This document shows, piece by piece, positions 1-16,490 of a DNA stretch of 64,000 nucleotides. Numbering within the stretch: position 1 is the stretch's first letter; each line of letters begins with the position of its first letter. The notes under the pieces were generated by a model that saw only the letters and a program-made list of their open reading frames with translations, was not told the DNA's origin and did no database searches. Position numbers and translations under genes: made by a program. This DNA is from an archaeon (lineage in GTDB: Archaea > B1Sed10-29 > WALL01), in contig JBHOSQ010000005.1 of NCBI GenBank assembly GCA_042584585.1, forward strand, positions 7,526 through 71,525. The letters are read 5' to 3'.

Positions 1-183
1 TTTAAGTGCGTAAGGAAGGAATCCCCTGAAGGTGTTCCCATTTACCTCCATAATTGCATCATCATCACAGCCTTCGTAGCCTTTCCCTAAATTATGAATT
101 ACTCTTTTCAGGACCCCCACGAAGTGATTCTTTTCAAATTCCTTGTAGTCCATGTGATTTTCCCCAAATTCTTTGTAATCCAT
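1..183 (-). CDS. hypothetical protein, 5'-partial at window edge (N-terminus MDYKEFGENH/MDYKEFEKNH tandem decapeptide)
   Basis: ATG at 183-181 preceded by an AGGTGA Shine-Dalgarno-like motif 7 nt upstream. Open to the window edge. Lies in ~40% GC DNA, unlike the rest of the window. Absent from the ORF track because no stop codon falls inside the window. Confidence 0.3.
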   Translation of the reverse strand, partial: MDYKEFGENHMDYKEFEKNHFVGVLKRVIHNLGKGYEGCDDDAIMEVNGNTFRGFLPYALK

Positions 184-197
184 ATACTCACCTTTAT

Positions 198-2138
198 CTA
201 AAGTGGTCTTGCCCCAACAACTTCCATGCCATCTGCTTCTAAAACTACCATCATAGGTTTATAGATACCCTTTTTAGTTTTAAAGTAACTAACTTTAACT
301 AGTCTCCCGCCTTGTGCCAAATCAGGCCGGAGCTCGCCTTTTGACGCCGTTTCTATCACCTTAGACTTAAGCACTGATTCACTCCAACCATACCTATCGA
401 AGAAGTCCACCAAGTGTTTTCCAACGATGTGGTACTTGAACGTTCCCTGTTTTAGGTAAACGTCTTTTGTGCCGATATTCATTTTATTGAACTTGCTGCT
501 TCCTGCTTTTGCCGCGGCGTCCATCACTTCAAACGACTTCTTTGCGCCCCAGATTTGCCCGGCAAACTGCGCGGGGTTGTGCCATGCCGTCGTCGCGAGG
601 CCAACAACCAAGTCACTCGCGTAGTACCTGACCTTGTCCGCCGCGTCCTGTTCGAACAAGTTCACGTTCTCGACAATCACGCAGCCCAATGCGTCCCCAG
701 CGTCCGCAACCAGCGACGGAATCGCGCCGCCGAACCCCTGGATGGCTCCACCCGCAAAGCTAGTGGCCGTCCAAAGCTGGTTCGCCGCACTGGTGGTGAG
801 GCTGTTCCATATCCCCTGCACGGGATTCACGTTGGCGTTCAACTGCTTCGCAAGGGTTTGCTGGCCAACGTCAATCGCGTCCTGTTGATAGTCCACACCC
901 GTCAAGTAAGTGCTTGCGTCGGCTCCAGTGTCCACCACGAATTGCCCCGCAGTGCCGAACCAATTCGCCACCCCCCGCGCGAAGTTGCTCGCGGGATTCT
1001 GCTTGGACATCACACGACACCGGTCAGTCGCCGAAAACCCGGCCATGTGCTTCATTTGGTCGTAATATGGCTCGTCACGCATCTTCGAAATCGCGTTTTC
1101 CTTCAAGTCATAAAAACCGCGGGTGACGCGCTCGCACTTGGCTACGCCCCCAACTAATTGGGAAATAGCTTCCGTGTCCATGCGGCTGAACCGCAGGTAA
1201 TTAGAAGGATTAATGTAGTCGTTAAACTCTTTGTTCACAACGCTGCAAGGCGGCCGGATTATGGATTGTTGACCCGAAACCCAAAGGGCGTGGTCTTGCG
1301 TTTCGGCAGAAGACAATGACTCAGCGGCCTCGACTTGTTCGAGGCGCCTCCATAATTCAGTGTCGTCATAGTTCAGCACGGCAACCAAGGCAGAAGCAAC
1401 TCTTCCAGAAAGCGAGTCGCTTATTGAGGCAGAGTCGAAAAGCTCTCCTGCCTCTTGCATAGCAAGGCGCTCCATTTCTTGCTGGTACTCCGCGTTGGCT
1501 GCTGCTGCAGCTTCCTCGTTTTCTTTCATGTGTTGTTCTGCTTTTGCGTTCAGGCCGTGTTGGTAGCTTGTCCATTGTGTTGTTGAAATTGTGTCGCCGC
1601 TTGAGCTTCCGGCGCATTCGCCCCCGAAAAAGTTCCACGAAAGCGGGACGCCCATGCACTTGTATGCGTCGCCGTGGAAGCACCGCAGCCCGCCACTCGG
1701 GGCGCACTGCATTTCCGTGCCTTTGCACGAGCCGTCCTGGAGGAACATCGTGCCTTGCGAAGAGCCAAAGCAGACCCAGCGGACGTTGTTGATGCATTGC
1801 TCTTCACTCGGTGAACACGTTGCGCCGGTCAACGCCAGCGACGCCGGCGCAAAAAAAGTGTTGATGGTGTAAAAGCCGTCGCCGTCAACGGAAAAAGTGC
1901 ACGAGCCGCCGCCAAACACGCCGGTCACACTGCTGCCCGATTGACCCAAACACGAGACGTCTATTGAGGCGCCCTCGTCGCTCCAGACCGCGAGCGTACC
2001 TGCGCCGGGAAAGTCTTTGGTGAAGCAGCCCGGCTCTGTGCCTGTGACACCTGTGCCGGTGAATTGTATGCATTGCGCTGCGGCAACCCCGACAAGAAGC
2101 AGTACTAGCAGTGCCCTCGCGTGATTTCTCCCCCTCAC
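198..2138 (-). CDS. secreted Cys-rich protein of unknown function (646 aa)
   Basis: N-terminal signal peptide ending AAAQC (lipobox-like). About 14 Cys in the first 200 aa, then an Ala/Glu-rich helical middle and an unrecognised C-terminal domain. A TTTAAATA TATA-like element lies ~26 nt upstream of the ATG. Confidence 0.55.
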   Translation of the reverse strand: MRGRNHARALLVLLLVGVAAAQCIQFTGTGVTGTEPGCFTKDFPGAGTLAVWSDEGASIDVSCLGQSGSSVTGVFGGGSCTFSVDGDGFYTINTFFAPASLALTGATCSPSEEQCINNVRWVCFGSSQGTMFLQDGSCKGTEMQCAPSGGLRCFHGDAYKCMGVPLSWNFFGGECAGSSSGDTISTTQWTSYQHGLNAKAEQHMKENEEAAAAANAEYQQEMERLAMQEAGELFDSASISDSLSGRVASALVAVLNYDDTELWRRLEQVEAAESLSSAETQDHALWVSGQQSIIRPPCSVVNKEFNDYINPSNYLRFSRMDTEAISQLVGGVAKCERVTRGFYDLKENAISKMRDEPYYDQMKHMAGFSATDRCRVMSKQNPASNFARGVANWFGTAGQFVVDTGADASTYLTGVDYQQDAIDVGQQTLAKQLNANVNPVQGIWNSLTTSAANQLWTATSFAGGAIQGFGGAIPSLVADAGDALGCVIVENVNLFEQDAADKVRYYASDLVVGLATTAWHNPAQFAGQIWGAKKSFEVMDAAAKAGSSKFNKMNIGTKDVYLKQGTFKYHIVGKHLVDFFDRYGWSESVLKSKVIETASKGELRPDLAQGGRLVKVSYFKTKKGIYKPMMVVLEADGMEVVGARPL

Positions 2139-2199
2139 ACAGTACTAGTGAGTTTTGGTGTATTTAAAACCTGTGCAGAAAACGTTTAAACGTTTTCTG
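2139..2199 (-). terminator. 24-bp perfect palindrome (CAGAAAACGTTTAAACGTTTTCTG) spanning the stop codon, followed by a U-tract and the TATA of the next gene
   Basis: On the minus strand the order is: 12-bp stem hairpin (2176..2199) containing the TAA stop, then GGUUUUAAAU, then the ATG of the 646-aa gene at 2138. Confidence 0.4.
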
Positions 2200-2569
2200 T
2201 GCATTGGTCTTCCCAGCCGTCGTAGTGTCCACCCAGCGCATCACAACAGCTTTCTATGCCCCCATATAAGAGGTTGCAGTTCGCCGGTTCTTTGGAGGCA
2301 TAAACGTCTTCCTTAAGCGCGCTTCTTGCAGCTTCTTCACATCCATAGCGTTTTGAAGAATCATCGATGTCTTTACAAAACGCCGTGCTTTTGTATTGAA
2401 TTGCTTTTTCGAGTTTGCACTCATATGTCTCGCAGAGTTCACCACTTAAGGTTTCTGATTCAGTTCGTTCTTCGATTCCGATGGTTGCGTTTGGACTGCT
2501 AATACAGCCACCAAAAAACAACGTTAGGAGTAATACCCCCATAACTAGATTTTTTGTCCTCTCTCCCAT
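2186..2569 (-). CDS. small secreted Cys-rich (lipo)protein, 127 aa
   Basis: Signal peptide with an FFGGC lipobox-like motif and at least 9 Cys. GGTGA RBS upstream of the ATG. Its stop codon sits inside a 24-bp perfect palindrome. Confidence 0.5.
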   Translation of the reverse strand: MGERTKNLVMGVLLLTLFFGGCISSPNATIGIEERTESETLSGELCETYECKLEKAIQYKSTAFCKDIDDSSKRYGCEEAARSALKEDVYASKEPANCNLLYGGIESCCDALGGHYDGWEDQCTENV

Positions 2570-2626
2570 AAGGTCACCTCACTAAAAATGGGTTAAGGAA
2601 ACTATTTAAAACTTTCATAAAAACGT

Positions 2627-5600
2627 CTAGATATTTGCCACTGGAGCGTCCGCGAATCTAATCTCGTTGTTAGTCAAGTCAATCTCAAGGCCAAAGAACT
2701 GGATGACGTTGTCGTCCTCTTCTTCTTCATCCTCGGGAGTTCCGCTCATCGGCTTGACGCCGAACGACTCGCTGTCTGACTTTGTCTCGTTCGTTGGAGT
2801 GTAAATCATGAAGCCAGTTAGTTGTTGGGTGCTTTCGGAAGAGCACGTAACTTTCCAGCTCATTGAATCGTACCCGGAGTTTCCAGCGATAGGCCCAATG
2901 TGTCTTGGGTTCTGATAAACAGAATCGATAGAACAGTCAGTAGTGAGATTGACTTTGACATCACCGAAGGATACGTTTTCTTCGTTGTAGTTGGTAACGT
3001 ATACTTTAGCCATGAATGGCGTCAGGGTAATCGCGTCCTCTGGCAATATCAAGTCCACCTTGAGGTTCGTGTATATACTCGTTACGTTGACCTGGACTCC
3101 TACTGGAGTGCCGTACATGCTCGTGTTGTCCATTGCGCGGATGTAAAGCGTGCTCACGCCTTCGGGCACGTTCTTGAACTCGTGCTTGTAGCTCGTGCCG
3201 TTATTGGCGCCTGTTACCGCGTCACTCCATTCAACGCCGTCGAACGAGTACTCGAATTCGTCCAAGTCAGCGTCGTCGCTGTGGAACGTCACGTTAACGT
3301 CGTCAATGTCGTACTGCGGCGTGCCAGTCGGCGCCGTGATAAGTGTCGTTGGACCCTGGTTGTTCACATTCGACCAAACCATAGAGACGTTCTCGTTGCC
3401 CGCCCAGTCAACCGCCTTGATGTAAGTGTACCTAACGCCCTCACTCACGTTATAGAACCACGCTGGGCTTCCGCCGGGATCCAGTTCCCACTCGCCGTCA
3501 TCAAGCTTCTGGTAAAACGCCTTCACGTCGCTTGAGCCAGAACTGTAGAGCTCCACCATGGTAGTGGTTCCAGTGTAATTGCTGTTGTTGCCACCACTCA
3601 TGGTCAACCCCGGAGCAACCGTGTCCACTGTGATGTTCACGTTCGCCTCGTCCCCAAGGTTCCCGAGCATGTCATAAGACCGCACGTAAAGCGTGTGGGC
3701 ACCATCCGATAGACTGAACGTGTGCGAGTCGCCGCTCTCGACGCTCCAGCCCCCGCTGTCGGCCTGGACCTCGTAGTAGTCCACGTCTGCCTGGTCGCTG
3801 GCGGAGTACTCAAAAAACCCGCTCGTGACATTTGCACCCTCGTTGGGGTAAGTAATCATAATCGTTGGCCCGCTTTGGTCAATCTCGAAGTCAACCGATA
3901 CCACGTCGCTCCAAAGGACGAAGTCGGTGCACTTCAAGTAAAGCGTGTGCGTTCCCTCAAGCGTTTGGTTGGTTATGGAAGTGACGTTCTGAACGCCGCT
4001 CGTCACGTTGAAGTCGCCGTTCCAAACGCCGGCATCCATTTTGTACTGGCACTTCAGCACGGTCTGCTCCGCGTCCGTTGCAGTGACGTTAATTTCGTCG
4101 ACGAACAAGTGGTACGAATCAACAACTGGCTCGTTTATCACTGCAGTCGGCGGGCTGTTCAGTGCCGACGTGGCGTTTACCCTGACGTGGTCCTCACCGG
4201 TCTCGGTGGAGTCAGACGCCCGTATCCTGAGCGTGCGCACCCCCGAGGGCAAGAGCGTGAAGTTGTAATCGTAATCTGTGTCCGCGCTTATTCCCGTTAT
4301 CCCGGTGTCTTTCCACAAGCCGCCGTCCACGGCGTACTCGAACTTGACGACGTCGTCGTCTGGCGTGGTGAAGTTCACGACCGCCCAGTTGTTCGCAGTA
4401 ACCGTGTCGTTCGCGGGCGAGGTAATGTTAACATCCGGCGCGTGCGAGTCAACGAAAACAGTGACGTTGTCCTCGGCGCCTTTCTTGCCGGCTTCGTCGA
4501 CGTGAAGCACGTGCAGTACGTGCCAGCCCTCTGCCAAGTCCTTGAACGCGGATGGCGACCCATTCGGGTCCTTGCACCACCGCTCGTTCGCGGTGTCGTT
4601 CCAGGTGTTTAGGTAAGGGGTCGGGCAGATTGCGCCGTTGTCCAGCTTGATGAGTGAGTGGTTCACGTCCGTGGCAGTGGTGTTGTAGTACACGCCAATG
4701 TTTGCGTACCCGAAGTGCGTGCTGTTGTCCGGAATGGTTATGAAGATGTCGGGCGGGCCGCTGTCTGGAGTAATTGTTATGTCCGCTGTGGCAGACGCAC
4801 CTGCTAAGTCGTCGTCCTTCACGAGAAGAGACACTTTGAAGGTGCCGGTCAGGTTGAATTTGTGGGTGGTTACCGGGTCGGTCGTGTTCGTGAGCGTGCC
4901 GTCGCCCCACTGCCACTCGTAGAAGGCAATGCTGCCGTCCGAGTCGGTGCTGGCCGAGGCGTTGAACGTGAGTTGGTGCTCTTTTTCACCAGTCAGGGGC
5001 GCGGCAAAGTTCGCGTTCGGTGGAGTGTTGCCGGGCGCGTCCGTGATTGTGACGTAGCTCCAGTCGTTGAAGCACTTGGGCACTTCCACCTTGACGTATT
5101 GGAACGTGGTGTTGTACCCCGGAATGGTGTAGGTGTGGGTCGCCCAAAGCTGGTGGCCGCCGTCGCCCATGCTGGTGTCCAGGCTCTCAAGGCTCTGCAT
5201 CCCCGCCTGCACCCAACTAATGTTGTTGTTTGAAGTGTAAACCGTGACGTTGTCTTTGCAGCTGTGGCTTCCGCCGGACTTGACGTCTACGTTGATGCTG
5301 ACGTTTTGCGTGATGCTGACTTGGAGGTCGTGGACGTGCCACTTCTGGTACCAGTTGCAGCAGTCAACAGTCCCGCAGTGTGAGTCGGCTTGGTTGGGCG
5401 AGTAGCCTATGCCGTTGTTGCAGCCATCGCGCCATAGTGACGTGTACGTCTTCATCGGCTGGGGGCCGCTGCCTACTCCCGTAGTGGGGCTGAATGCCGT
5501 GTAACTCTCGGGGTTGGCCGAGTCAGGCATGTGAATCATGATTTGGGCGATTTTTTCGTCCGTGACGAGCGCGAAGCGCGTTGGAGTGTCGGGGTTGCCG

Positions 5601-6049
5601 ACTCCTTTCTCCGCCACTTTGTGGAAGAATCCGCCTGCCGAAGCGAAGATTTCTACTTTGCTGGTGTCGCCGTGCGGCGTCACCTCGAACTCGAAGCGCG
5701 TGAGGCCGTCGGTCTCGACTTTGAAGATGTGGTTGTTGTCCAGGTTGCCGCATTTCGTGCCGCTGCAGAACACTTCTTCCGCGTCCGACACGTCTGGCCC
5801 TGTATCAATTGGCTCCGGCGTCGGCTCCGGAGTAGCTTCCGGTGTTGGCACTGGCGTTGCTGTTGGCTCGGGAGTGGGTGTTGGTGTCACCTGCTGGATT
5901 TTTACTTGGTTGTTGACCGCGTCAATCTGGATTTGGAGTGTTTGTAGCAGCTGGCTGAAGTCCGGGCCGATGAAAGCAAAGGCTGGGCTTAGTAAAATGA
6001 TAGACATTATCACCGCAACTACGCATCTCCGCATAATTCTCATATGCAA
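2627..6049 (-). CDS. large secreted surface protein with Pro/Thr linker and multiple PKD/Ig-like beta-sandwich repeats (1140 aa)
   Basis: Signal peptide, then TPTPTPEPTATPVPTPEATPEPTPEP linker. An FYEWQWGDGT PKD-type motif and many N-x-T/S sequons. Own TATA (TTTATATA) ~25 nt upstream of the ATG, consistent with a leaderless transcript. Confidence 0.75.
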   Translation of the reverse strand: MHMRIMRRCVVAVIMSIILLSPAFAFIGPDFSQLLQTLQIQIDAVNNQVKIQQVTPTPTPEPTATPVPTPEATPEPTPEPIDTGPDVSDAEEVFCSGTKCGNLDNNHIFKVETDGLTRFEFEVTPHGDTSKVEIFASAGGFFHKVAEKGVGNPDTPTRFALVTDEKIAQIMIHMPDSANPESYTAFSPTTGVGSGPQPMKTYTSLWRDGCNNGIGYSPNQADSHCGTVDCCNWYQKWHVHDLQVSITQNVSINVDVKSGGSHSCKDNVTVYTSNNNISWVQAGMQSLESLDTSMGDGGHQLWATHTYTIPGYNTTFQYVKVEVPKCFNDWSYVTITDAPGNTPPNANFAAPLTGEKEHQLTFNASASTDSDGSIAFYEWQWGDGTLTNTTDPVTTHKFNLTGTFKVSLLVKDDDLAGASATADITITPDSGPPDIFITIPDNSTHFGYANIGVYYNTTATDVNHSLIKLDNGAICPTPYLNTWNDTANERWCKDPNGSPSAFKDLAEGWHVLHVLHVDEAGKKGAEDNVTVFVDSHAPDVNITSPANDTVTANNWAVVNFTTPDDDVVKFEYAVDGGLWKDTGITGISADTDYDYNFTLLPSGVRTLRIRASDSTETGEDHVRVNATSALNSPPTAVINEPVVDSYHLFVDEINVTATDAEQTVLKCQYKMDAGVWNGDFNVTSGVQNVTSITNQTLEGTHTLYLKCTDFVLWSDVVSVDFEIDQSGPTIMITYPNEGANVTSGFFEYSASDQADVDYYEVQADSGGWSVESGDSHTFSLSDGAHTLYVRSYDMLGNLGDEANVNITVDTVAPGLTMSGGNNSNYTGTTTMVELYSSGSSDVKAFYQKLDDGEWELDPGGSPAWFYNVSEGVRYTYIKAVDWAGNENVSMVWSNVNNQGPTTLITAPTGTPQYDIDDVNVTFHSDDADLDEFEYSFDGVEWSDAVTGANNGTSYKHEFKNVPEGVSTLYIRAMDNTSMYGTPVGVQVNVTSIYTNLKVDLILPEDAITLTPFMAKVYVTNYNEENVSFGDVKVNLTTDCSIDSVYQNPRHIGPIAGNSGYDSMSWKVTCSSESTQQLTGFMIYTPTNETKSDSESFGVKPMSGTPEDEEEEDDNVIQFFGLEIDLTNNEIRFADAPVANI

Positions 6050-6126
6050 TAATGTTCTTAATAAGAGAGTATATAAAGCTTACTCTAGACTGGACAATTT
6101 ACCAGTAAAACCGGGTTTTTGCGGCA

Positions 6127-7017
6127 TTATGTAAGGTCTATGTGGGCTGTGAGCGTAGAGCCACTAGCCGGAGAGTGTGTACTGGCTCCTTTCTCGTTGC
6201 ATAGTACTGCCGTACCGCCCCCGGCACTTATTTCTACGAGGTATACGCCGGTATTCGTGCTTATGGCATTCGTTATGCGGGTTGTACTCAAATCAAACTC
6301 TAGTTTATCGTTAGTACCAAGATTTTTACCTGAGCCCTCCGAACTCCATCCAGTAGTGTCAAGCCCAGTAAGGCTGGGAATGAACGTTGTTGAACTATCC
6401 GACGTTACGAAAATGTTTGGAGCTGGATTACTGGTTTGGGATTTCTCAAAGTTCAGGGTGAGAGTTGCCGAGCTTATAGGATTAGTACCTACCTCATTGA
6501 AGTCAAAGAGCAAGTACGCCTTAAGTCCTCCACCAATAATTGTGTCTACACTGCAGACTGGGAATAAACCCGTTTGGGCTTTGTTTTGGTCGTTGTCGCC
6601 GGGATAAAACAGCTCCCACGTCACTTTTTCGGGCGCGCCTTCTCCGTACTGAATCCATCCAGTCTCGGTTTGGAGCCATGCCGTCCGCGACGCAGCGTCG
6701 AACATGAGCGTGTACTGGTCTTGTAGCATGCACGTTTCCACTGCAGCGGTCGAGGGCGCGTCAGTACCCCCCTTCGTCATCTCTCCCGTGTAGTACGTGA
6801 TTGACGATGGGGCAGTCAACGGGTCGTTGCCCAAATACGGGTTGGTGTAGCCCTTCAGGCCAAGGTGGTAGTCCCGGCACTCAATGATGTCGATTTGCAC
6901 GCCCCGCTGCGTCGCCGCAGGCGTCAGCACGGCGTTCAGAATCAACAAAACGCTTGCGATGAACCCCATCACCGCAATTATGATCAATAAGTACTCAACT
7001 GCTCCCTGGCCCTTCAT
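6127..7017 (-). CDS. class III signal peptide (archaeal type IV pilin-like) protein, 296 aa
   Basis: N-terminus MKGQGAVEYLLIIIAVMGFIASVLLIL: a short basic leader, Gly, then Q+1 and Glu followed by a hydrophobic helix. Confidence 0.7.
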   Translation of the reverse strand: MKGQGAVEYLLIIIAVMGFIASVLLILNAVLTPAATQRGVQIDIIECRDYHLGLKGYTNPYLGNDPLTAPSSITYYTGEMTKGGTDAPSTAAVETCMLQDQYTLMFDAASRTAWLQTETGWIQYGEGAPEKVTWELFYPGDNDQNKAQTGLFPVCSVDTIIGGGLKAYLLFDFNEVGTNPISSATLTLNFEKSQTSNPAPNIFVTSDSSTTFIPSLTGLDTTGWSSEGSGKNLGTNDKLEFDLSTTRITNAISTNTGVYLVEISAGGGTAVLCNEKGASTHSPASGSTLTAHIDLT

Positions 7018-7059
7018 AACTGAAAATAAGCACGATAGCTATAAAAACATTCCTTTCGT

Positions 7060-7518
7060 TTGCCTTCAACGATGCGGGGTCAAGTAACCATCGAATACAT
7101 CCTTGTCCTAGTCATAATGCTGGTCATACTCGCAACCGTGTCCATACCAACGATTGAGCAAATCGAGGTCGACGTCACCGACACCGGCAACGCAATCAAC
7201 CTGGCGGCAGTCCAGCAAAGAATCGCGTCAACCGCAAGGGAAATGAGCCTCACGGGATGCGGTTCAACCAAAAACATCACTGTCCACATCCAGCAAGACC
7301 TCTTCACACCACTAACAATCACGTGGGACGGCAACAAAGTCGGGGGCCAACTAAAATTGATGAACGGCACCGACCGCGACCTCAAAGACCTCACGTTCCC
7401 AGACACGATAAAAGTCGAGGCCTCCAACAGCACACAATTCCATTACTGGGACCTTCGCTTCACCAAAGACTGCGGGACGTTCACTTCATCAGGCTGCATA
7501 GGGGACTGCGGCATATGA
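7060..7518 (+). CDS. class III signal peptide pilin-like protein
   Basis: N-terminus MPSTMRGQVTIEYILVLVIMLVILATV. RG|Q cleavage-site-like motif with E at +5. Confidence 0.7.
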   Translation: MPSTMRGQVTIEYILVLVIMLVILATVSIPTIEQIEVDVTDTGNAINLAAVQQRIASTAREMSLTGCGSTKNITVHIQQDLFTPLTITWDGNKVGGQLKLMNGTDRDLKDLTFPDTIKVEASNSTQFHYWDLRFTKDCGTFTSSGCIGDCGI

Positions 7519-7898
7519 AAGGGCAAACCGCGCTCGAAATGGTCCTCCTCGCCGCACTCATAATCGTCGTCGCCGGAATGGTATACGTCTCCTACTCCGG
7601 AGAGTCAGCAGACACCATCGCTGAAACCACCATCCGCACCCAAGCCAACATGATACTCGCCAAAGGCGCACTCACAAACGCCTCCTGCGCCAACGCCCAA
7701 CTAATCTACTTCAACGAAACAACAACCAAACGCCGCTACGAATTAACAATAGTCCCAGACTACTGCGGCCCGTTCCTCTTCACCCAGCCCGCCCGCGACA
7801 ACATCCAGGGAAGAATCAGCGAAGCCCTCGGCTGCCGCTACGAAGACAACGGCACATGCCAAGGCAAGAATTATATAGTCTCGCTCGCAAAGACATAA
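7515..7898 (+). CDS. class III signal peptide pilin-like protein (128 aa)
   Basis: ATG at 7515 overlaps the upstream TGA (ATGA). N-terminus MKGQTALEMVLLAALIIVVAGMV. The ORF track extends it to 7257, but that upstream part lies out of context in GC-rich shadow sequence. Confidence 0.7.
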   Translation: MKGQTALEMVLLAALIIVVAGMVYVSYSGESADTIAETTIRTQANMILAKGALTNASCANAQLIYFNETTTKRRYELTIVPDYCGPFLFTQPARDNIQGRISEALGCRYEDNGTCQGKNYIVSLAKT

Positions 7899-7908
7899 CG
7901 GGGAGAAA

Positions 7909-9042
7909 TTGGAGGGAGAGGCAAAAGCGCTATGCATTGCTGCGGCAGCCATAGGGCTAGCCATCGCGCCGGACGCCTCGCTTGTCCTCGGCTGCCTCGC
8001 CGGAATCGTCACCGGATTAATCCCCGGCCTGCACCCAAACACCTTCCTCCCAATGGCCAGTGGCACTGCATTCATAATCGGCCTCGCCGTCTCCCATTCG
8101 TTCTTCGACTTCCTGCCCGCCATAATGCTCGGCGCACCCGACGAAGCCACCTCACTCTCAGTGCTCCCGGGCCACAAGATGCTGCTCCGAGGAAAAGCGC
8201 TCGAGGCCTTCCGCATCACCATACTCGGCGGGCTCTTTGCCGGAATACTCGCAGCGCTCTTCATCCCGTTCCTCGGGTTCGCAAACCAGCCCATTCTAGT
8301 GCCGATTGTTTTGGTATTCACGCTCGCCACAATGCTCGCCAACGCAAAACACAAGACAAAAACAATTCTGGTGATGATTGCCGCGGCATTCATCGGCCAC
8401 CACGCGCTCGCGGCCAACGCATTGCCTGCCATGCTTGCCGGGTTCTTCGGCACCAGCACAATCATTTTTTCGCTCGCCACCCGGCCGGTGATTCCGCCGC
8501 AGCTCCCGCACGCAAAAGCAAGAATCACCCACCGCGAGGCCGCGTTGGCGGCGGTCGCGGGATGGCTCGCGGGACTTTTTCCCGCGGTCTCGCCGTCAGT
8601 TGCAGCAATGGCTCTTTGCCCAAAGATGAAGCACCGAGAATTCCTCGCGGTGCTCGGCGGAACCAACACGGTTTACGCAATCGCCGCAATACTTGCAATT
8701 AACATTGTCGGCAGGCCGCGGAGCGGAGCCGCCATTGCGGTGGGGCGCCAAGACTTTTTGTTCGTCGCCGGCTCGGCGCTCGCGGCAATCGGGATTTCGG
8801 CGTGGCTCGCGTGGCACTTGTCAAAACCCTTGGTGCAGTGGTTCAACAAAGTCAACCACCGCGCGGCGTCGGGAATTGCGCTGATAATCGTTGTTGGGAT
8901 TGCGGGGCTGGGCGGCACGACCGCACTGGCCTTTCTCGCTGTTTCCACACTGGTTGGCCTGGTGTGCCTCGCGTGGGGAGTGAGGCGCAGCACGTGCATG
9001 GCAAGCCTTTTAATCCCGGTCCTGCTTTACTACTTATTGTGA
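7909..9042 (+). CDS. polytopic membrane protein, DUF112/TctA-like (377 aa)
   Basis: About 10 predicted TM helices. Motif GIVTGLIPGLHP fits the G-x3-G-x2-P-G-x-G-P TctA/DUF112 signature, and a second internally duplicated half is present. See the finding on its alternative reading as an aspartyl peptidase. Confidence 0.5.
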   Translation: MEGEAKALCIAAAAIGLAIAPDASLVLGCLAGIVTGLIPGLHPNTFLPMASGTAFIIGLAVSHSFFDFLPAIMLGAPDEATSLSVLPGHKMLLRGKALEAFRITILGGLFAGILAALFIPFLGFANQPILVPIVLVFTLATMLANAKHKTKTILVMIAAAFIGHHALAANALPAMLAGFFGTSTIIFSLATRPVIPPQLPHAKARITHREAALAAVAGWLAGLFPAVSPSVAAMALCPKMKHREFLAVLGGTNTVYAIAAILAINIVGRPRSGAAIAVGRQDFLFVAGSALAAIGISAWLAWHLSKPLVQWFNKVNHRAASGIALIIVVGIAGLGGTTALAFLAVSTLVGLVCLAWGVRRSTCMASLLIPVLLYYLL

Positions 9043-9395
9043 AAATCAGCCAGACCGCAGTCGAGTTCATTCTTGAAACCGCGAAGAATGCGTACCCCCG
9101 CGAGTTCGTGGGGATGCTCCGCGCCAACGAAGGTGTGATTACCGAAATCTTGATTATTCCGGGGAGCAAGTTCGAAAAGAATTATTCATCAGTCCTCACC
9201 AACATGGTGCCGCTGGACCCCTCGATTGTCGGCTCGGTGCACTCACACCCAGGCCCGGCGAGGCCGTCGCGCGCGGACCTGCGGTTTTTCGAGAGGGGCA
9301 TGGTTAACCTCATCGCTGGCTACCCCTATGAGTTCGGCAACCTCGCGGCTTTTGACGCTCACGGCAGCCCGACAAGCCTAGAAATAGTTAAATAG
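9039..9395 (+). CDS. JAMM/MPN+ family metalloprotease (about 118 aa)
   Basis: Motif VHSHPGPARPSRAD matches H-x-H-x7-S-x2-D, with the conserved Glu (EF) upstream. GTG start at 9039 overlaps the stop of the preceding gene (GTGA). The ORF track start at 8802 is probably an over-extension. Confidence 0.7.
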   Translation: MKISQTAVEFILETAKNAYPREFVGMLRANEGVITEILIIPGSKFEKNYSSVLTNMVPLDPSIVGSVHSHPGPARPSRADLRFFERGMVNLIAGYPYEFGNLAAFDAHGSPTSLEIVK

Positions 9396-9417
9396 CCCCG
9401 GTGCATATTCACAAGCG

Positions 9418-10050
9418 ATGCGGGGCTCTCTTACGCTCGAGTTCATACTCTCGCTAGTCCTGCTCATAGCGACGGCAGGCGGGTTTTTGATGCTGTCGTA
9501 CGGCCAAATCGAGAACAGCGTGATTGCCTCGACGCAGTACAAGGCCGAGGCCATGGCAATGTCCACCGGCTCCGCGCTGACGCACTTTTTCGCGACCGAG
9601 CCCGAGTACGGTTCGTACATGGAAATGGACTTCAGGGGCTTGCCACAAGAGGCGGCCGGCCAGTCCTCGTTCGGCATGCCCGGGTTCGGGGTGTACGCCA
9701 GCGGGCAGGAATGCAACGTGAGCATTGATATCGACAACAGCATGGTCATCGTAAACATACTTGTCTACCGAATCGAGTCCAGCGAGCCGGAACTCGTGAC
9801 GGCAAAGTACCCGTTCGCAAGTGGGGTAAGCGCCGGAGCCTGCAGTGGCGAAATAACTCTTGTCAAGACCGTGGGCTGCGGCAAGGGCATAAGCGTTTCC
9901 ATGCAGGCGGATGGCGGCTACTTGATTAACGAGCTTGGGATTAGGGCGTTTTTGCCTGGCGGGCCGACGGCTTCGCCCCTGCCATTCACCGGTGACAATG
10001 GCGAATCTACACCCATACCAACTCCGCCTGGGGGGTGGCAACTGGCATGA
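9418..10050 (+). CDS. class III signal peptide pilin-like protein (210 aa)
   Basis: N-terminus MRGSLTLEFILSLVLLIATAGG. Confidence 0.7.
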   Translation: MRGSLTLEFILSLVLLIATAGGFLMLSYGQIENSVIASTQYKAEAMAMSTGSALTHFFATEPEYGSYMEMDFRGLPQEAAGQSSFGMPGFGVYASGQECNVSIDIDNSMVIVNILVYRIESSEPELVTAKYPFASGVSAGACSGEITLVKTVGCGKGISVSMQADGGYLINELGIRAFLPGGPTASPLPFTGDNGESTPIPTPPGGWQLA

Positions 10051-10403
10051 AAGGCCAAATCTTTGTCGTGGACTTGATGTTCGCACTCGTAATCATTGTG
10101 CTCGCGATTGGCATAACCACGCAGGCGTTCGATTACCACCTGCAGCAGACTGCGTCAACGGTCGAGCACGCCAAGATGCAGCAGCTCGCGATTGACGCCG
10201 CGGCAGTCACCTACTACAAGGGGGCTGCTTCTTACTATTGGGGGCTCGAAGAAAAGATAGGTCCCTTCTGCGGCGCCCAAGGGGGCGCGGTCAGCATAGG
10301 CTACACGCTGGAAGAGTCTCCCGTGGCCGGCAATACCTGCGTCGGGAGCACGCGCGGCACGGGCGACAACAAAGTGGAGGTGTTCGTCTGCAGAAGGGAG
10401 TAA
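10047..10403 (+). CDS. class III signal peptide pilin-like protein
   Basis: ATG at 10047 overlaps the upstream TGA (ATGA). N-terminus MKGQIFVVDLMFALVIIVLAIG. Confidence 0.7.
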   Translation: MKGQIFVVDLMFALVIIVLAIGITTQAFDYHLQQTASTVEHAKMQQLAIDAAAVTYYKGAASYYWGLEEKIGPFCGAQGGAVSIGYTLEESPVAGNTCVGSTRGTGDNKVEVFVCRRE

Positions 10404-10648
10404 TCTTCACTGCCGAAGCCATCTACGTAATCGTGGTGGTCTTCGCCGCACTCATTGTTTTCTTTGCGTCGCTTCCATCGGTCAATGTCCCGAGCTATGA
10501 CTCGGTCCAGGCCATGAAAGTGATCCACGACATGGGCGAAGAGCAGACCATCAAGCCCCCGCCGGGCTACAACACCACTGGCTGCGAGGGCAAGACCACA
10601 GCCATGCTGGACTACTACAACGAAACCCTGGAGGTGTGCATGACTTGA
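10388..10648 (+). CDS. pilin-like ORF with no canonical start codon (...LQKGVIFTAEAIYVIVVVFAALIVFF...)
   Basis: Pilin-like hydrophobic N-terminal segment in the frame of ORF 10238..10648. There is no in-frame ATG/GTG/TTG between the TTG at 10238 and the KG|V motif. Boundaries are uncertain. Confidence 0.3.
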   Translation: MQKGVIFTAEAIYVIVVVFAALIVFFASLPSVNVPSYDSVQAMKVIHDMGEEQTIKPPPGYNTTGCEGKTTAMLDYYNETLEVCMT

Positions 10649-11331
10649 AGGGATTCATGGGCACCGCGGCCGCAATGCTGTTCGCGTTCTCGCTGGTCAC
10701 CGCAGGGTATTCATTCATGCTCTCGCAATCCGACCTGAGCTATTCGTCAATGGCGGGACCCGTCGTCGAAAGCACGCGCTGGGCCGCCGAGGCAGAGCTG
10801 TTCGAGTGCGCCACAACGGGCGACACGAACTTCAACGGAGACGCGTACAAAGAAGCGATTGGCATGAACCTGGTCGGCGTCAATGGCAATGCCAGCACCA
10901 TAAACAATTACGGGCTTGGCTCAATGAAGCTGTCCGTCCACTTGGAGCGCGACTATTCCCCAACAATCCACTTAAAACCCGGACCTCCCCTGCAGTGGAC
11001 TGTCTGTGACACCGAAGCAGATTCGCTCACCTTCACGCTGTCGGGCGACCTCCCCGCGTCCGCGATGTCCATCCAGAAACTCTTGGGGGCGGGGGTTTAC
11101 TCCTACACTCCTGCTCCTGGAGAGTCCGGCACTTACTGGATTTCTGGCAAGGACTCTACCGGCACGGTATACAGCAACAAAGTAACTGTGACAGCCGCCG
11201 CGGCGCCAACCCCAACGGCAATTCCGACTGCCATCCCGACAGCAATGCCGACTGGGATACCGACTGCGTTCCCAACAGCAATGCCAACCGTGCTGCCGAC
11301 AGCCTTCCCACCATTCGTACCCTTTTTCTAG
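10636..11331 (+). CDS. class III signal peptide pilin-like protein with C-terminal (x-P-T-A)n repeat
   Basis: Start is GTG at 10636 or TTG at 10645, giving MKGFMGTAAAMLFAFSLVTAG. C-terminus is APTPTAIPTAIPTAMPTGIPTAFPTAMPTVLPTAFPPFVPFF, encoded by a 12-nt tandem repeat. Confidence 0.6.
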   Translation: MHDLKGFMGTAAAMLFAFSLVTAGYSFMLSQSDLSYSSMAGPVVESTRWAAEAELFECATTGDTNFNGDAYKEAIGMNLVGVNGNASTINNYGLGSMKLSVHLERDYSPTIHLKPGPPLQWTVCDTEADSLTFTLSGDLPASAMSIQKLLGAGVYSYTPAPGESGTYWISGKDSTGTVYSNKVTVTAAAAPTPTAIPTAIPTAMPTGIPTAFPTAMPTVLPTAFPPFVPFF

Positions 11332-12149
11332 AGTGACTCAAGGAAAGAGTCGACACGCAGCCCCTTTTTCTTGGCGAGAATTCGAATGAACTTGTCCGAG
11401 CGCGAGCCGTACTGCGCCGCCTTTTTCGGCGCGAAAGCGATTTCCTTCGGCAGCCCAAGCTCCACCGCAAGCTCGCGGAACACAATCTTGTTGTTTTCCG
11501 AATCGATTTTTTGTTCCGCCGGAACCGCGAGCGCCTCCTCGACAAACGCCTTGTCCAGGTAAGGGAAAAACGGTTCCTTGTCCCACGCTTTTGACACGCC
11601 GATGTCCCTCGACACGTCACGCTCCCACGCGCCCATCACGCCGTTGAAGCATTCGTCGTCAATCGCGCGGTAGTCCGGCAATAACTTCCGGTGGCGCTCG
11701 TATCCCGCGAACAATTCCTCTGTGCCCATCCCGAAAAACAAGGCCCGCTCCCCAGCGTTTTTGGCGCAGAACCAAAGAGGTAAGGCAACGCCGAGCTTCA
11801 TCACGTTTTTGCTGTTGATGGCCGCGGCGACTTTGGGCAACTCCCGGCGCACGTCCTCGACAGTGAACTCTATGCGGGTCAGTTCCACGCCGAGAATGCC
11901 GGCGCTTTTCTCGGATTGCTCCCAGTCATGCGAGTCACGAGCAGCGGCGCAGTAGCAGTGGAGTGATAATTTGTCCTTGAGCAAAAGTGCAAGCAAAGAA
12001 GAGTCTACTCCGCCAGAAAAAAGCAGCGCCGCCTCGGATAGCCCGGCGGCTCGCCTGTCAACAGAATCAAGAAGAAGTTTCTTCAAGTTTTCCTTGCTGC
12101 CGTTGGGCCTCCGCTCGAGCGACGGGTGTTTCGCCCACTCGCCGTCCAT
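11328..12149 (-). CDS. asparagine synthetase-like PP-loop ATP pyrophosphatase domain protein
   Basis: SGGVDSS PP-loop motif. Similar in size and pattern to the AsnB C-terminal synthetase domain. Confidence 0.55.
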   Translation of the reverse strand: MDGEWAKHPSLERRPNGSKENLKKLLLDSVDRRAAGLSEAALLFSGGVDSSLLALLLKDKLSLHCYCAAARDSHDWEQSEKSAGILGVELTRIEFTVEDVRRELPKVAAAINSKNVMKLGVALPLWFCAKNAGERALFFGMGTEELFAGYERHRKLLPDYRAIDDECFNGVMGAWERDVSRDIGVSKAWDKEPFFPYLDKAFVEEALAVPAEQKIDSENNKIVFRELAVELGLPKEIAFAPKKAAQYGSRSDKFIRILAKKKGLRVDSFLESL

Positions 12150-14298: not shown

Positions 14299-15312
14299 AT
14301 GCGCGTGACAAAGCGGGCGCTTCCGGACATCCGTGTTGTGCCGGAAACGCTTGATGACATATGGCATCTCGAGAAGATTATCGAGAAGGGAGACTTGGTT
14401 ACTGCCAAGAGTGAGCGCAGGTTCAAGACCGAGTCCGGAAAGTCCGAGCGCAAGACGGTCAAGGTAAAAATAACTGTCGAGGGCCTCGAGTACCACCGGG
14501 ACTCGCGGAAGCTACGCCTGCTCGGAACGATTGTGGAGGGGCACCCGCTCGAGTACGTTGTAATCGGCACGCACCACACGATTGAGGTCTTGCCCGGAAT
14601 CATGATCACAGTCACGAAAGAGCACTGGAAGCGCTACCAACTCGAGCGCCTCGACCACGCGGTCAAGGCATCAAAAAAGCCGAAGCTATTGATTGTCGTG
14701 ATGGACGACGAGGAAGCCGAGCTCGCGCTGCTCAGGGACTTTGGATTGGAAAAGAAAGGCACAATCCGCTCCGGAAAAAGCGGCAAAGCCTTTCCCTCGG
14801 ACAAAAAGGACGACTACTTCGACCAAATCGCGGACGCCATCAAAGGCGCTGAAAAAATCGTGGTCGCGGGCCCGGGATTCACCAAGGACAATTTCGCGAA
14901 GTGGCTTGAGGGAAAGCCATTGGCCAAGAAGTGCGTGTTCGCCGACATCGGCGGCACCGGCACGCCCGGCATGCAGGAGCTATTGAAGAAAGGGGTCATC
15001 GAAAAAATCGTGAAGGACGCGCGAGCCGCGCTTGAGGCCTCGCTTGTGGAAGACGTGATGGTGAAAATCCCCACCGACAACTCGACTTATGGCCTAGCGC
15101 AGGTGGAAGAGGCGCTGGACTTCGGCGCCGCGGAAAAATTGCTTCTCGCGGACAGTTATTTCTCGGACAACAGGGACGAGGCAGAAAAGCTCCTCCAAAA
15201 AGCGGAGAAGACGAACTGCGAGGTCCACATAATCAGCACGGAACACGAGCCCGGAGAAAGATTGGAGCACCTCGGCGGCGTCGCTGCCCTGCTAAGGTTC
15301 AAGACGGCTTGA
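14299..15312 (+). CDS. Pelota/Dom34 mRNA surveillance factor
   Basis: N-terminal ...PETLDDIWHLEKIIEKGDLV... is typical of archaeal Pelota. 337 aa, with an eRF1-like domain arrangement. Confidence 0.85.
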   Translation: MRVTKRALPDIRVVPETLDDIWHLEKIIEKGDLVTAKSERRFKTESGKSERKTVKVKITVEGLEYHRDSRKLRLLGTIVEGHPLEYVVIGTHHTIEVLPGIMITVTKEHWKRYQLERLDHAVKASKKPKLLIVVMDDEEAELALLRDFGLEKKGTIRSGKSGKAFPSDKKDDYFDQIADAIKGAEKIVVAGPGFTKDNFAKWLEGKPLAKKCVFADIGGTGTPGMQELLKKGVIEKIVKDARAALEASLVEDVMVKIPTDNSTYGLAQVEEALDFGAAEKLLLADSYFSDNRDEAEKLLQKAEKTNCEVHIISTEHEPGERLEHLGGVAALLRFKTA

Positions 15313-15915
15313 GAACTCGCCCGCAAACCGCTCCCACATGGCAACGTTTTTTTCGAACTTGGAGTTCGCCTGCTCGACGAGCAAAGAACAATAGTTTTTG
15401 TCGACCAAAAGCTCACCATCTTTTTTCACGGGCACCGCCATTCGGTACGTGCCCTCGAACTCGATTTGCACCCGGTTCCCACTAATCGAAAAGATGCCCC
15501 CGCGCTTCATGCCTGCGGAAGCCTTTACCTTCAGCAGTGCGTTCGCCGCATCAATGTCGCGGCAGGACACGTGGAGAATCAGGGGGTCGGCGTTGAGCCA
15601 CACGAATTTTCCTTCCGCGTTTTGCAGCGCATCCCATGCGTCATCAGCACTGACGGGATTGTGCTGCTTCCAAAGAAACTCCGAGTTTTTTTTCGTGGAG
15701 TCCGGGAGGTCGATCAACACTATGCGGCCGTAGCACGAAGAAGAAGTCACGTAGTCCGGATGAGAATTAATCAAGTCGAGGTATTTGTTTACCTCGGAGT
15801 CGACAACGCCTTCGTTCCGCGCGTTGTCCAGCAATTCCAATAGCTCTTTTTTGATGTCGTCAAACTTTGCGTCGCGCGGGCCAGTGTACCCGTGCTTTAC
15901 GTCGGTTACTTTCAC
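15292..15915 (-). CDS. tRNA wybutosine-synthesizing protein 3 (TYW3/Taw3)-like
   Basis: SSSCYGRI motif matches the TYW3 S-x-C-x-G-R signature. Likely GTG start at 15915 overlaps the upstream TGA (GTGA). The ORF track start at 15996 is an over-extension. Confidence 0.5.
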   Translation of the reverse strand: MKVTDVKHGYTGPRDAKFDDIKKELLELLDNARNEGVVDSEVNKYLDLINSHPDYVTSSSCYGRIVLIDLPDSTKKNSEFLWKQHNPVSADDAWDALQNAEGKFVWLNADPLILHVSCRDIDAANALLKVKASAGMKRGGIFSISGNRVQIEFEGTYRMAVPVKKDGELLVDKNYCSLLVEQANSKFEKNVAMWERFAGEFSSRLEP

Positions 15916-16490
15916 AGAATCCCCTTGAGCTCGTCCAAGTAGCGGATGACGTGGTCGGGCTCGAACGAGGTCTCTTCTTCCACCGTTTTCTTCCACACGG
16001 TCTCCATCCCGGCCTTGCCCGCGAGCGCCAATACATTCAGCTTGTCGTCAACGACAACACAGTCGCCGAACTGCTTCTTCGCTTCCTCGTATACCCGGGG
16101 GTTGTTCTTCAGGTAGCCCCACTGCGGCGTGGCGACGACCTGGTCGAACATGACGCGCAAGTTTTTCTTGTCGACAATCAAGTCGAGCCAGTCCTTCGGG
16201 AAGTCACTGAACAGGACAAGGGGGTAGCCCTTGCGGGCCAAATAGGCAATCACTTCGCGGAGCTTTGGGTCAAGCTGGATTCGGTTCAGCATTTCAGCCC
16301 GGCCCTTCACCGGCTCCCAGCCGTGCTTTTCCCAGAATTCGTTCTCGTCGACCCGCCTGAACTTGAGATCGTTGTAGTCCCGCTCCACCTGGACGTCCAG
16401 AGCGCCCTTGCACAATGGCTTCAGGACGTTCCTGTGAAAATGCCCGTCCGGACAAACCACGCCGAACATGTCGAGCAGAACAGTCTTCAC
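15912..16490 (-). CDS. HAD-superfamily hydrolase-like protein
   Basis: N-terminal hhhhDMFGV (degenerate motif I) and VVDDK (motif IV); 192 aa. Confidence 0.45.
   Translation of the reverse strand: MKTVLLDMFGVVCPDGHFHRNVLKPLCKGALDVQVERDYNDLKFRRVDENEFWEKHGWEPVKGRAEMLNRIQLDPKLREVIAYLARKGYPLVLFSDFPKDWLDLIVDKKNLRVMFDQVVATPQWGYLKNNPRVYEEAKKQFGDCVVVDDKLNVLALAGKAGMETVWKKTVEEETSFEPDHVIRYLDELKGIL

Follow-up and report, generated by a model that had tools for sequence, protein, structure and literature searches.

A gene on the minus strand at positions 198..2138 of a 64,000-nucleotide stretch of archaeal DNA (contig JBHOSQ010000005.1 of assembly GCA_042584585.1, positions 7,526 to 71,525; this whole stretch is referred to as the window) probably encodes a polymorphic toxin, which would form a toxin/immunity pair with a small open reading frame (ORF) coupled to it downstream by a Shine-Dalgarno sequence. 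The product, 646 amino acids (aa) long from a GTG start, is annotated as a 'hypothetical protein' (NCBI MFC2174668.1). The initial annotation of this region, made from the sequence alone, listed three co-directional minus-strand ORFs of 646, 127 and 1140 aa behind a 296-aa pilin-like gene, an arrangement that we find as described. It recognized no family for the 646-aa and 127-aa Cys-rich proteins, and indeed neither has a match in Pfam, NCBIfam or PDB sequence searches; the 646-aa protein does, however, belong to a small family of its own and ends in a recognizable domain, which moves it from no recognizable family to a defined functional class.

When 1.84 billion cluster representatives were searched exhaustively with phmmer, five proteins were retrieved, that is, a family of five clusters, with all matches lying between residue 1 and about residue 215 of the query. 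One of them, P0002 (ACFLQ2_03910, MFC2174979.1, 809 aa), is a paralog from the same metagenome-assembled genome (MAG) that is 80% identical to the window protein over residues 1-205 and then loses all similarity; across the family members, identity of the N-terminal domain to the window protein is 80%, 50%, 40% and 44%. Similar breaks are seen between the relatives themselves. P0002 and P0004 share 41% identity up to approximately residue 615 and are unrelated beyond, P0005 follows these two at 27% until approximately residue 640, and the middle regions of P0006 and the window protein differ. As read from these alignments, the family is one with a conserved N-terminal part and an abrupt switch to unrelated C-termini. 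P0002, P0004, P0005 and P0006 have no Pfam match, and Rhs/YD, FHA, LXG, DUF4157 and other known trafficking or processing domains were not found by Pfam and NCBIfam searches in the 646-aa protein or its relatives. A metagenome scan added two further loci, both from the sample that yielded P0006 and one of them designated L006; a scan of viral contigs gave no match, nor did a profile search of genome contigs with a two-sequence alignment of the N-domain, for which narrow patterns were used.

The N-terminus of the 646-aa protein is a putative signal peptide (residues 1-22, positions 2073..2138, MRGRNHARALLVLLLVGVAAAQ, followed by Cys), and a hydrophobic N-terminus followed by an invariant Cys, with either an AxA-type or a lipobox-like site, is present in five of five family members. 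It is followed by the family-defining Cys-rich N-domain (residues 23 to about 200, positions 1539..2072). The protein contains 16 Cys, rather than the 14 given by the initial annotation, and no N-glycosylation sequon; 12 of these Cys, all within residues 23-175, are invariant in the alignment of the five members. A role for Cys23 as a lipid anchor was considered and rejected, as this residue is one of the invariant 12; since that number is even, six disulfides are favoured over lipidation. The AlphaFold2 model of the whole protein has a mean predicted local distance difference test score (pLDDT) of 39.5, with usable parts at residues 21-100 and 150-190. Residues 21-100 (pLDDT 73-87) are modelled as an all-β sandwich, and the best Foldseek neighbours of the model are PPC/collagen-binding and carbohydrate-binding module (CBM) β-sandwiches, at a non-significant E-value of ~0.016. 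On this model, the N-domain is a new Cys-rich β-sandwich that lies outside the Pfam and NCBIfam models. The central region (residues 201-546, positions 501..1538) has no homolog and is predicted to be helical, at pLDDT 21-34. The C-terminal tip (residues 547-646, positions 201..500), a probable RNase toxin domain as detailed below, is strongly basic, with an isoelectric point (pI) of 9.8, compared with 4.4 for the N-domain, the remainder of the protein being acidic.

The tips of the window protein and P0006 match each other at E=2e-5, and a profile built from both retrieves from PDB the chain 7M5F_C, 'Toxin CdiA' (E=2.4e-8), in an alignment that spans almost all of the length. This structure is of the CdiA-CT domain of Serratia marcescens BWH57, which has been described as a toxin of the BECR (Barnase/EndoU/Colicin/RelE) fold and whose homologs number more than 900 predicted antibacterial proteins (PMC8616854). 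Many short bacterial proteins called "filamentous hemagglutinin" are among the profile search matches. The tip of P0006 matches 7M5F by itself (BLASTP E=5e-9, 31% identity) and scores 51.9 bits (E=1.6e-15) against a hidden Markov model (HMM) of 40 bacterial CdiA-CT(BWH57) members only, and we confidently assign it to this family from its sequence. The window tip aligns to the 40 bacterial members at 27-35% identity, collinearly to the C-terminus, with a best BLASTP match of 30.4 bits (E=7e-5) and 18 matches above 23.5 bits, the maximum reached by 200 composition-matched shuffles (mean 17.6, standard deviation 2.1). Alignment of the window tip to the bacterial alignment by hhalign gave E=0.0019 over 84 columns. 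In the combined 41-sequence alignment the window tip retains L, G, H570, I, H575, F, G, A, G, QG, R612 and the terminal VVGA-x-P, and in two alignments H570, H575 and R612 coincide with H47, H52 and R89 of CdiA-CT(BWH57). The latter three, together with E51, have been proposed as active-site candidates (PMC8616854), which makes H570, H575 and R612 candidate catalytic residues of the window tip. An AlphaFold2 model of the tip built with the bacterial-family alignment has a core pLDDT of 81-90 and the element order α-α-β-β-β; the top Foldseek entries for it are chains of the CDI (contact-dependent inhibition) toxin-immunity complex 6CP9 (TM-score 0.43-0.48, E=0.24), with HigB2 at rank 17. Taken together, these similarities make the window tip a likely, though diverged, homolog of the CdiA-CT(BWH57) family of BECR-fold toxins.

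Several results weigh against a toxin assignment and were taken into account. The bacterial-only HMM gives the window protein 4.6 bits, with E=0.68 in a set of 531 ORFs, and a spurious match elsewhere in the window scores higher; it is because of this non-significant score that the window tip is graded as a probable member of the family and not as a member. The hhalign probability for it is 14%, phmmer with the window tip alone found no CdiA chain in PDB, and the Foldseek search of PDB with the tip gave no significant match and did not list 7M5F. The proposed catalytic E51 corresponds to K574 in the window protein. Signal peptides were called by eye. All members of the family are metagenomic, and no more than two or three organisms may stand behind four of the loci. 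For two of the other kinds of element discussed below, the candidate immunity ORF of the window, which is a partial sequence, had no PDB match and no Pfam match at E-values up to 1, and a profile of the tips that resemble PD-(D/E)xK nucleases had no match in PDB. Finally, no orphan tip cassette is visible in the window, which ends 197 nucleotides (nt) after the toxin gene.

Wherever the 3' end of a family member is visible, a small co-directional ORF without a Pfam match begins 0-35 nt behind it. In L001 this ORF encodes 136 aa after a gap of 34 nt, in L002 it encodes at least 171 aa and overlaps the toxin stop codon, and in L003 it encodes 164 aa after a gap of 3 nt. In the window, the ORF at 1..183 on the minus strand, which begins MDYKEFGENHMDYKEF and crosses the window edge, is represented by its 5' part of 61 codons, for a product of at least 61 aa. 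This ORF was missing from the earlier list of genes and is newly found here. Its ATG (183-181) lies 14 nt past the toxin stop and is preceded by the Shine-Dalgarno sequence GGTGA at 188-192; as there is such a sequence and no TATA box between the two genes, co-transcription is suggested, and the ORF is probably transcribed together with the 646-aa gene. The four downstream ORFs are mutually unrelated. Two immunity candidates were compared with PDB and had no match. Lack of database matches is usual for immunity proteins, and from its position the downstream ORF of the window is a candidate immunity gene for the toxin.

Related loci contain what look like detached tips. In L006, a stand-alone 208-aa ORF (3489-4115 on the minus strand) matches residues 552-741 of P0004 (28%) and residues 561-618 of P0002 (44%), starts at the conserved pre-tip junction GVKLDDAIY, carries a D...EVK motif and is accompanied by a 125-aa ORF; the two (L006 3105-4115, minus strand) look like an orphan toxin-tip/immunity cassette. 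In L001 the toxin/ORF pair is followed, at 3703-4901, by a 51-aa ORF and then by paralogous 158-aa and 188-aa ORFs (mutual E=4e-8) that belong to no family, and these three may be further orphan or immunity elements. The tips of P0004, P0005 and the L006 orphan contain D...E-x-K motifs (for example KPDFMVVKPDGSVVEIVEVK) and look like PD-(D/E)xK nucleases; given the null result of the PDB profile search mentioned above, this identification stays a reading of the motif. At positions 1-1599 of L006, on the plus strand, a G/N/T-rich linker joins the end of an N-domain in frame to a domain of the Peptidase_M64 family (E=2.9e-9, with a HESGH motif). As M64 is an IgA-peptidase-like zinc peptidase, this fusion indicates that the N-domain module bears payloads other than nucleases as well.

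Assuming that the assignment to a toxin/immunity pair is correct, the 646-aa protein would be exported by the Sec pathway, and its disulfide-rich N-domain would retain it on, or target it to, a cell surface. The helical middle might aid entry, as in the three-part bacteriocins of the colicin type, whereupon the tip would cleave RNA in a competitor or host cell, and the downstream protein would neutralize the tip in the producer.

Bacteria are well known to have polymorphic toxin systems (Zhang, Aravind et al. 2012, PMC3482391), and the family resembles these in its conserved secreted N-terminal part with interchangeable C-terminal tips (nuclease, peptidase), in the small ORF immediately downstream, in the orphan tip-plus-ORF cassette at a related locus, in the abrupt sequence switch relative to a paralog in the same genome and in the presence of large secreted immunoglobulin (Ig)/PKD proteins nearby. 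It differs from them in that the N-module is a new Cys-rich one and not a known trafficking domain, in its extremely small size and in its host, apparently an Iainarchaeota-related archaeon. Archaeal versions of such systems have been predicted as well (Makarova et al. 2019, cited in both PMC8416519 and PMC6393860); as of 2021 these were genome predictions that had not been characterized experimentally (PMC8416519). A literature search found no description of a polymorphic toxin system in DPANN archaea or Iainarchaeota, nor of this N-domain family.

The comparison with CdiA-CT(BWH57), whose structure 7M5F is accompanied by the CdiI immunity protein, is restricted to the tip. About 95 C-terminal residues align end to end, sharing the H-x4-H pair, the G-R motif and the terminal VVGA(N/R)P, and in both cases a basic tip occupies the extreme C-terminus of a larger protein. 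In contrast, the similarity is weak, E51 is replaced by K, the delivery part of the window protein is unrelated, and there is no CdiB and no outer membrane to cross; the immunity candidate of the window resembles no PDB chain, a search that included no direct comparison with CdiI(BWH57). Because the FHA repeats, the VENN motif and the transporter are all absent, the 646-aa protein does not represent a CdiB/CdiA system, the tip alone being common to both. Colicin and pyocin nuclease bacteriocins are comparable in their way of working, in that an N-terminal binding/translocation part is linked through helices to a nuclease at the C-terminus and the immunity gene lies just downstream; their N-terminal and central parts nevertheless have no sequence relation to those of the window protein, and they are released by lysis proteins, unlike the Sec-type export expected here. 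The VARTIG modules of Thermococcales, which have been discussed as resembling polymorphic toxin systems and in which no toxin domain was found (PMC8416519), likewise include a large secreted multi-Ig protein among co-directional variable genes. There, the large Ig protein is itself hypervariable, whereas here the Ig/PKD protein is conserved and a separate protein bears the variable tips.

In the order of transcription on the minus strand, positions 1-7017 of the window contain the 296-aa pilin-like gene (6127..7017), the 1140-aa gene (2627..6049), the 127-aa gene (2186..2569), the 646-aa gene and the truncated small ORF. NCBI names in this block are of the type "hypothetical protein ACFLQ2_02250 / _02255 [archaeon]". 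The motif TTTWWATA occurs seven times in the 64 kb, as compared with 1.96 expected, a count reached in none of 100 shuffles, and for four of these seven copies the distance to the start of the gene downstream (646, 127, 1140 and 296 aa, respectively) is 22-33 nt, so that each of the four complete genes has its own consensus archaeal TATA box, in agreement with the initial annotation. For the 646-aa gene the box is TTTAAATA (2161..2168), 22 nt upstream of the GTG; the same sequence precedes the 127-aa gene at 2603-2610, within a promoter and ribosome-binding region at 2574..2610; and for the 1140-aa gene it is TTTATATA (6070..6077), 26 nt upstream of the ATG at 6043. The fourth, TTTTTATA (7040..7047), is situated in the 42-nt gap between the divergent pilin-like genes that start at 7017 on the minus strand and 7060 on the plus strand. 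This gap holds a single, near-palindromic TATA element, TTTTTATA / TATAAAAA, which may be a shared bidirectional promoter of the two genes. It had also been suggested that the transcripts are leaderless, which, considering the TATA spacing, is plausible for three genes, those for the proteins of 646, 1140 and 296 aa; the 127-aa gene, having a Shine-Dalgarno GGTGA (2574-2578) 4 nt before its ATG, is not leaderless. The block is best described as a surface and secretome neighbourhood of four separately promoted genes and not as one machine.

The 1140-aa protein, so counted from a TTG codon, has 1138 residues if translation starts at the ATG at 6043, and a start at this ATG or at the one at 6034 agrees better with the N-termini of its orthologs. 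Its domain architecture bears out what had been read from the sequence previously. A signal peptide extends to approximately residue 26 (SPAFAF/IGP) and is followed by a (T/E)P-rich linker (residues 55-80, positions 5810..5887, as read from the translation), which is also found in both orthologs, and by two uncharacterized domains (residues 95-340, positions 5030..5767) that are conserved in the orthologs and have no Pfam match. Next is a PKD domain (residues 341-425, positions 4775..5029) containing FYEWQWGDGT, which is matched by Pfam PKD_4 (E=5.6e-15; 55.6 bits with a cut-off of 27) and PKD (E=8.7e-11; 42.1 bits with a cut-off of 23.5), as well as by PKD domains of collagenases and endoglucanases in PDB down to E=9.6e-14. 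Residues from about 430 to 1000 (positions 3050..4762) form divergent β-sandwich repeats of the Ig-like/OmpL47 type, of which NCBIfam barrel_OmpL47 recognizes two stretches (E=8.5e-12), while Pfam Big_7, Big_13 and Y_Y_Y all remain below cut-off. The repeats can be seen as offset alignments to the ortholog in L003, and self-BLASTP at E<1e-3 detects none. A final β domain (residues ~1000-1095), an acidic E-rich stretch and a conserved tail of about 25 residues complete the protein, which has no transmembrane or PGF-CTERM-type anchor. The number of N-X-S/T sequons, given earlier as more than 40, is 35 by our count, still a 2.5-fold excess over the 14 expected from composition, and the pI is 4.2.

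Two orthologs of the 1140-aa protein were identified. That in L003 is collinear with it from the signal peptide on (32-43% identity), and its gene lies two genes downstream of a toxin homolog on the same strand, the window gene being placed two genes upstream. The other, encoded in a Candidatus Iainarchaeum MAG (L007), has 1231 aa and is 55% identical over the C-terminal 738 aa and 36% end to end; the neighbours of its gene are small HTH genes and a pair that reads as AbiE-like, and neither a homolog of the toxin family nor one of the pilins occurs in the 10 kb upstream and 3 kb downstream. All three proteins are acidic (pI 4.2-4.5) and have 34-38 sequons where 14-17 are expected. Given its solitary occurrence in L007, we read the 1140-aa protein as a neighbour of the toxin that is facultative and not obligate. 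The signal peptide, PT linker, PKD and Ig repeats, acidity and sequon richness are those of archaeal PKD/Ig surface and S-layer-type glycoproteins (arCOG02508-type, PMC8416519), from which it differs in having domains at residues 95-340 that belong to no family and in lacking an anchor. This fits the adhesin- or S-layer-like architecture that had been noted for it, and the only traits bearing on an S-layer role, all of them indirect, are the consensus TATA box, the acidity, the conserved excess of sequons and the solitary L007 ortholog. The 1140-aa protein is therefore described here as a candidate S-layer-like protein or adhesin, predicted to be a conserved, heavily N-glycosylated PKD/Ig-repeat protein of the cell surface. 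Within it, a Cys-rich module at residues 206-333 (positions 5050-5434; W-x-D-x-C...H-C...VDCC-x-WYQ, with VDCCNWYQ in the window), for which there is no Pfam model, also occurs, at 31-35% identity, in a pair of ORFs from an Aenigmatarchaeota MAG (L008 3388-5583 and 9875-11023) and looks like a surface-protein domain that is mobile in DPANN archaea.

The sole match of the 127-aa protein in 5.8 billion clusters is the protein itself. It has a putative signal peptide that ends in a lipobox-like FFGG/C and an acidic mature part with eight Cys, the total of nine in the protein being as originally counted. We treat it as a real, lineage-specific ORFan resembling a lipoprotein.

Upstream of the block, the 296-aa protein has a class-III-type N-terminus (MKGQGAVEYLLIIIAVMG), which Pfam Class_IIIsignal matches below cut-off (E=0.022), and six further pilin-like ORFs with such N-termini are located on the plus strand at 7060-11331, a series into which genes for a TctA-family membrane protein (7909-9042) and a Prok-JAB protein (ORF called at 8802-9395) are inserted. 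The region 7060-12149 is syntenic with L005, where a pilin ortholog (50% identity), a second pilin, the TctA and JAB genes, four pilin-like ORFs and the flanking Asn-synthase-like gene keep the same arrangement (818-4907). In L005 a toxin-family gene is directly divergent from the pilin pair, at the place where the window has the 296-aa gene followed by the block, and this arrangement implies that the toxin family recurs at the same chromosomal spot. At L002 the upstream neighbour of the toxin homolog is an unrelated membrane protein and not a pilin. As a separate observation, a truncated ORF upstream of the toxin gene in L003 (3-359) has the motifs NTAIS and [DN]EKGAS in common with the C-terminus of the 296-aa protein (window 6127-6300), and BLASTP between the two is non-significant (E=1.4).

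In the proposal of the initial annotation, the type IV pilus-like filament encoded next to the block would receive its adhesive tip or its cargo from it, the 1140-aa protein serving as fibre adhesin and the Cys-rich pair as accessory proteins or cargo. The co-directional position of the block directly downstream of one pilin-like gene and next to six others, the recurrence of a toxin-family gene beside the orthologous pilin pair in L005 and the adhesin-like PKD/Ig architecture of the 1140-aa protein can all be cited for it. None of the 1140-, 127- and 646-aa proteins has a class III signal peptide, their N-termini being Sec-type or lipobox-like without the [KR]G-Q/hydrophobic prepilin motif, which means that none of the three is a filament subunit. 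Pfam scans of the larger ORFs found no pilus ATPase and no PilC or platform gene in the 64 kb, each gene has its own TATA box, and co-occurrence with pilins, seen for the toxin homolog of L005, fails for the 1140-aa ortholog of L007 and for L002. Hypervariable C-termini with a coupled small ORF, moreover, would not be expected of pilus subunits, and the siting beside fast-evolving surface genes is explained equally well by islands of variable, non-essential genes. A match of these proteins to well-characterized families unlinked to pilins had been named as evidence that would speak against a role in the filament; the tip does match a characterized CDI family, whereas the family as a whole is new and recurs beside pilins. 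We thus regard the observations of the initial annotation as largely confirmed and its interpretation as partly supported; nothing was found in favour of a role as filament cargo, and we consider the filament proposal improbable. Alternatively, the 646-aa family could serve nutrient acquisition or host attachment. Its members would then be secreted enzymes or binders, with a CBM/PPC-like N-module and varied catalytic domains, in place of an antagonistic toxin system, and the ORFs downstream would be unrelated to them. DPANN archaea scavenge nucleotides and peptides, collagen-binding/PPC and CBM domains are what the model of the N-domain resembles, the M64 peptidase of one member is not a classical toxin, and the toxin homology of the window tip is only moderate. 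Against this explanation stand the coupling, at 0-35 nt, of a small, unrelated and non-secreted-looking ORF to every nuclease-tipped member, for which immunity is the better fit, and the orphan tip cassette with a small ORF of its own; in addition, the tip of P0006 falls in a family known only from antibacterial CDI toxins (PMC8616854). We accord little probability to this explanation as well.

A further alternative concerns the 1140-aa protein, which could be a dedicated scaffold for display or delivery of the toxin, analogous to the CdiA stick, with the four genes forming a single contact-dependent inhibition module. Genes of the two families are indeed close, no more than two genes apart and on one strand, in two lineages with different gene orders (the window and L003), large secreted Ig/PKD proteins have been reported as frequent neighbours of predicted archaeal polymorphic toxin systems (PMC8416519), and a CBM-like N-domain might conceivably bind the glycans of a protein with 35 sequons. 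Against this, the L007 ortholog stands alone, the 6 kb that follow the toxin gene in L001 and L006 contain no 1140-like gene, and the promoters are separate; we consider such a module very improbable. The 1140-aa neighbour is more fittingly seen as a conserved surface protein of the lineage, an S-layer or adhesin candidate, than as pilus cargo. Beyond these alternatives, the preferred reading of the 646-aa gene and its downstream ORF as a toxin/immunity pair can be extended to the much bolder proposal that an Iainarchaeota-related DPANN archaeon possesses a previously undescribed contact-dependent antagonism system analogous to CDI. This would comprise Sec-exported toxins with a new glycan- or surface-binding N-domain and swappable tips, at least one tip type being drawn from the bacterial CDI pool, displayed or delivered by means of the giant glycoprotein and/or type IV pili and possibly directed against hosts or rival episymbionts. 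In this full form the proposal is speculative, and we think it unlikely.

The locus nevertheless constitutes a compact and testable archaeal example in which a new trafficking or binding domain, a CDI-like tip and a candidate immunity gene come together. The tip is apparently common to bacterial CDI toxins and, if this is true, warheads have been exchanged across domains of life. DPANN archaea live attached to other cells, and for this reason an RNase toxin that is secreted or held at the surface could matter in competition between symbionts or in manipulation of the host. The organism itself is apparently a DPANN archaeon related to Iainarchaeota. Among the relatives of the block genes, the best-named is the 1140-aa ortholog of the Candidatus Iainarchaeum MAG, and Iainarchaeota are a DPANN group (NCBI kingdom Nanobdellati). 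Archaeal housekeeping genes elsewhere in the window include those for ABCE1/RLI, a pelota/aRF1-type protein, TYW3, RFC, Cdc48, LonB and PheRS; tRNA and Rfam searches of the window gave zero matches.

Some additional genes at the related loci deserve mention. Downstream of the 1140-aa ortholog in L007, at 14721-16413, convergent ORFs of 272 and 307 aa read as an AbiEi/AbiEii-like toxin-antitoxin pair. L001 (2818-3669) and L003 (2892-3821) have in common, after the ORF in the immunity position, a family of 283-aa and 309-aa proteins (E=1e-22) with an N-terminal membrane anchor and Cys, which has no Pfam family, has no detected counterpart in the window and is not related to the 127-aa protein. 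In L006, two paralogous secreted proteins with a C-terminal transmembrane anchor (1596-2765 and 4261-5469) are 83% identical over their C-terminal ~210 aa and differ in their Cys-rich N-terminal halves, and thus are mosaic surface proteins encoded beside the toxin gene.

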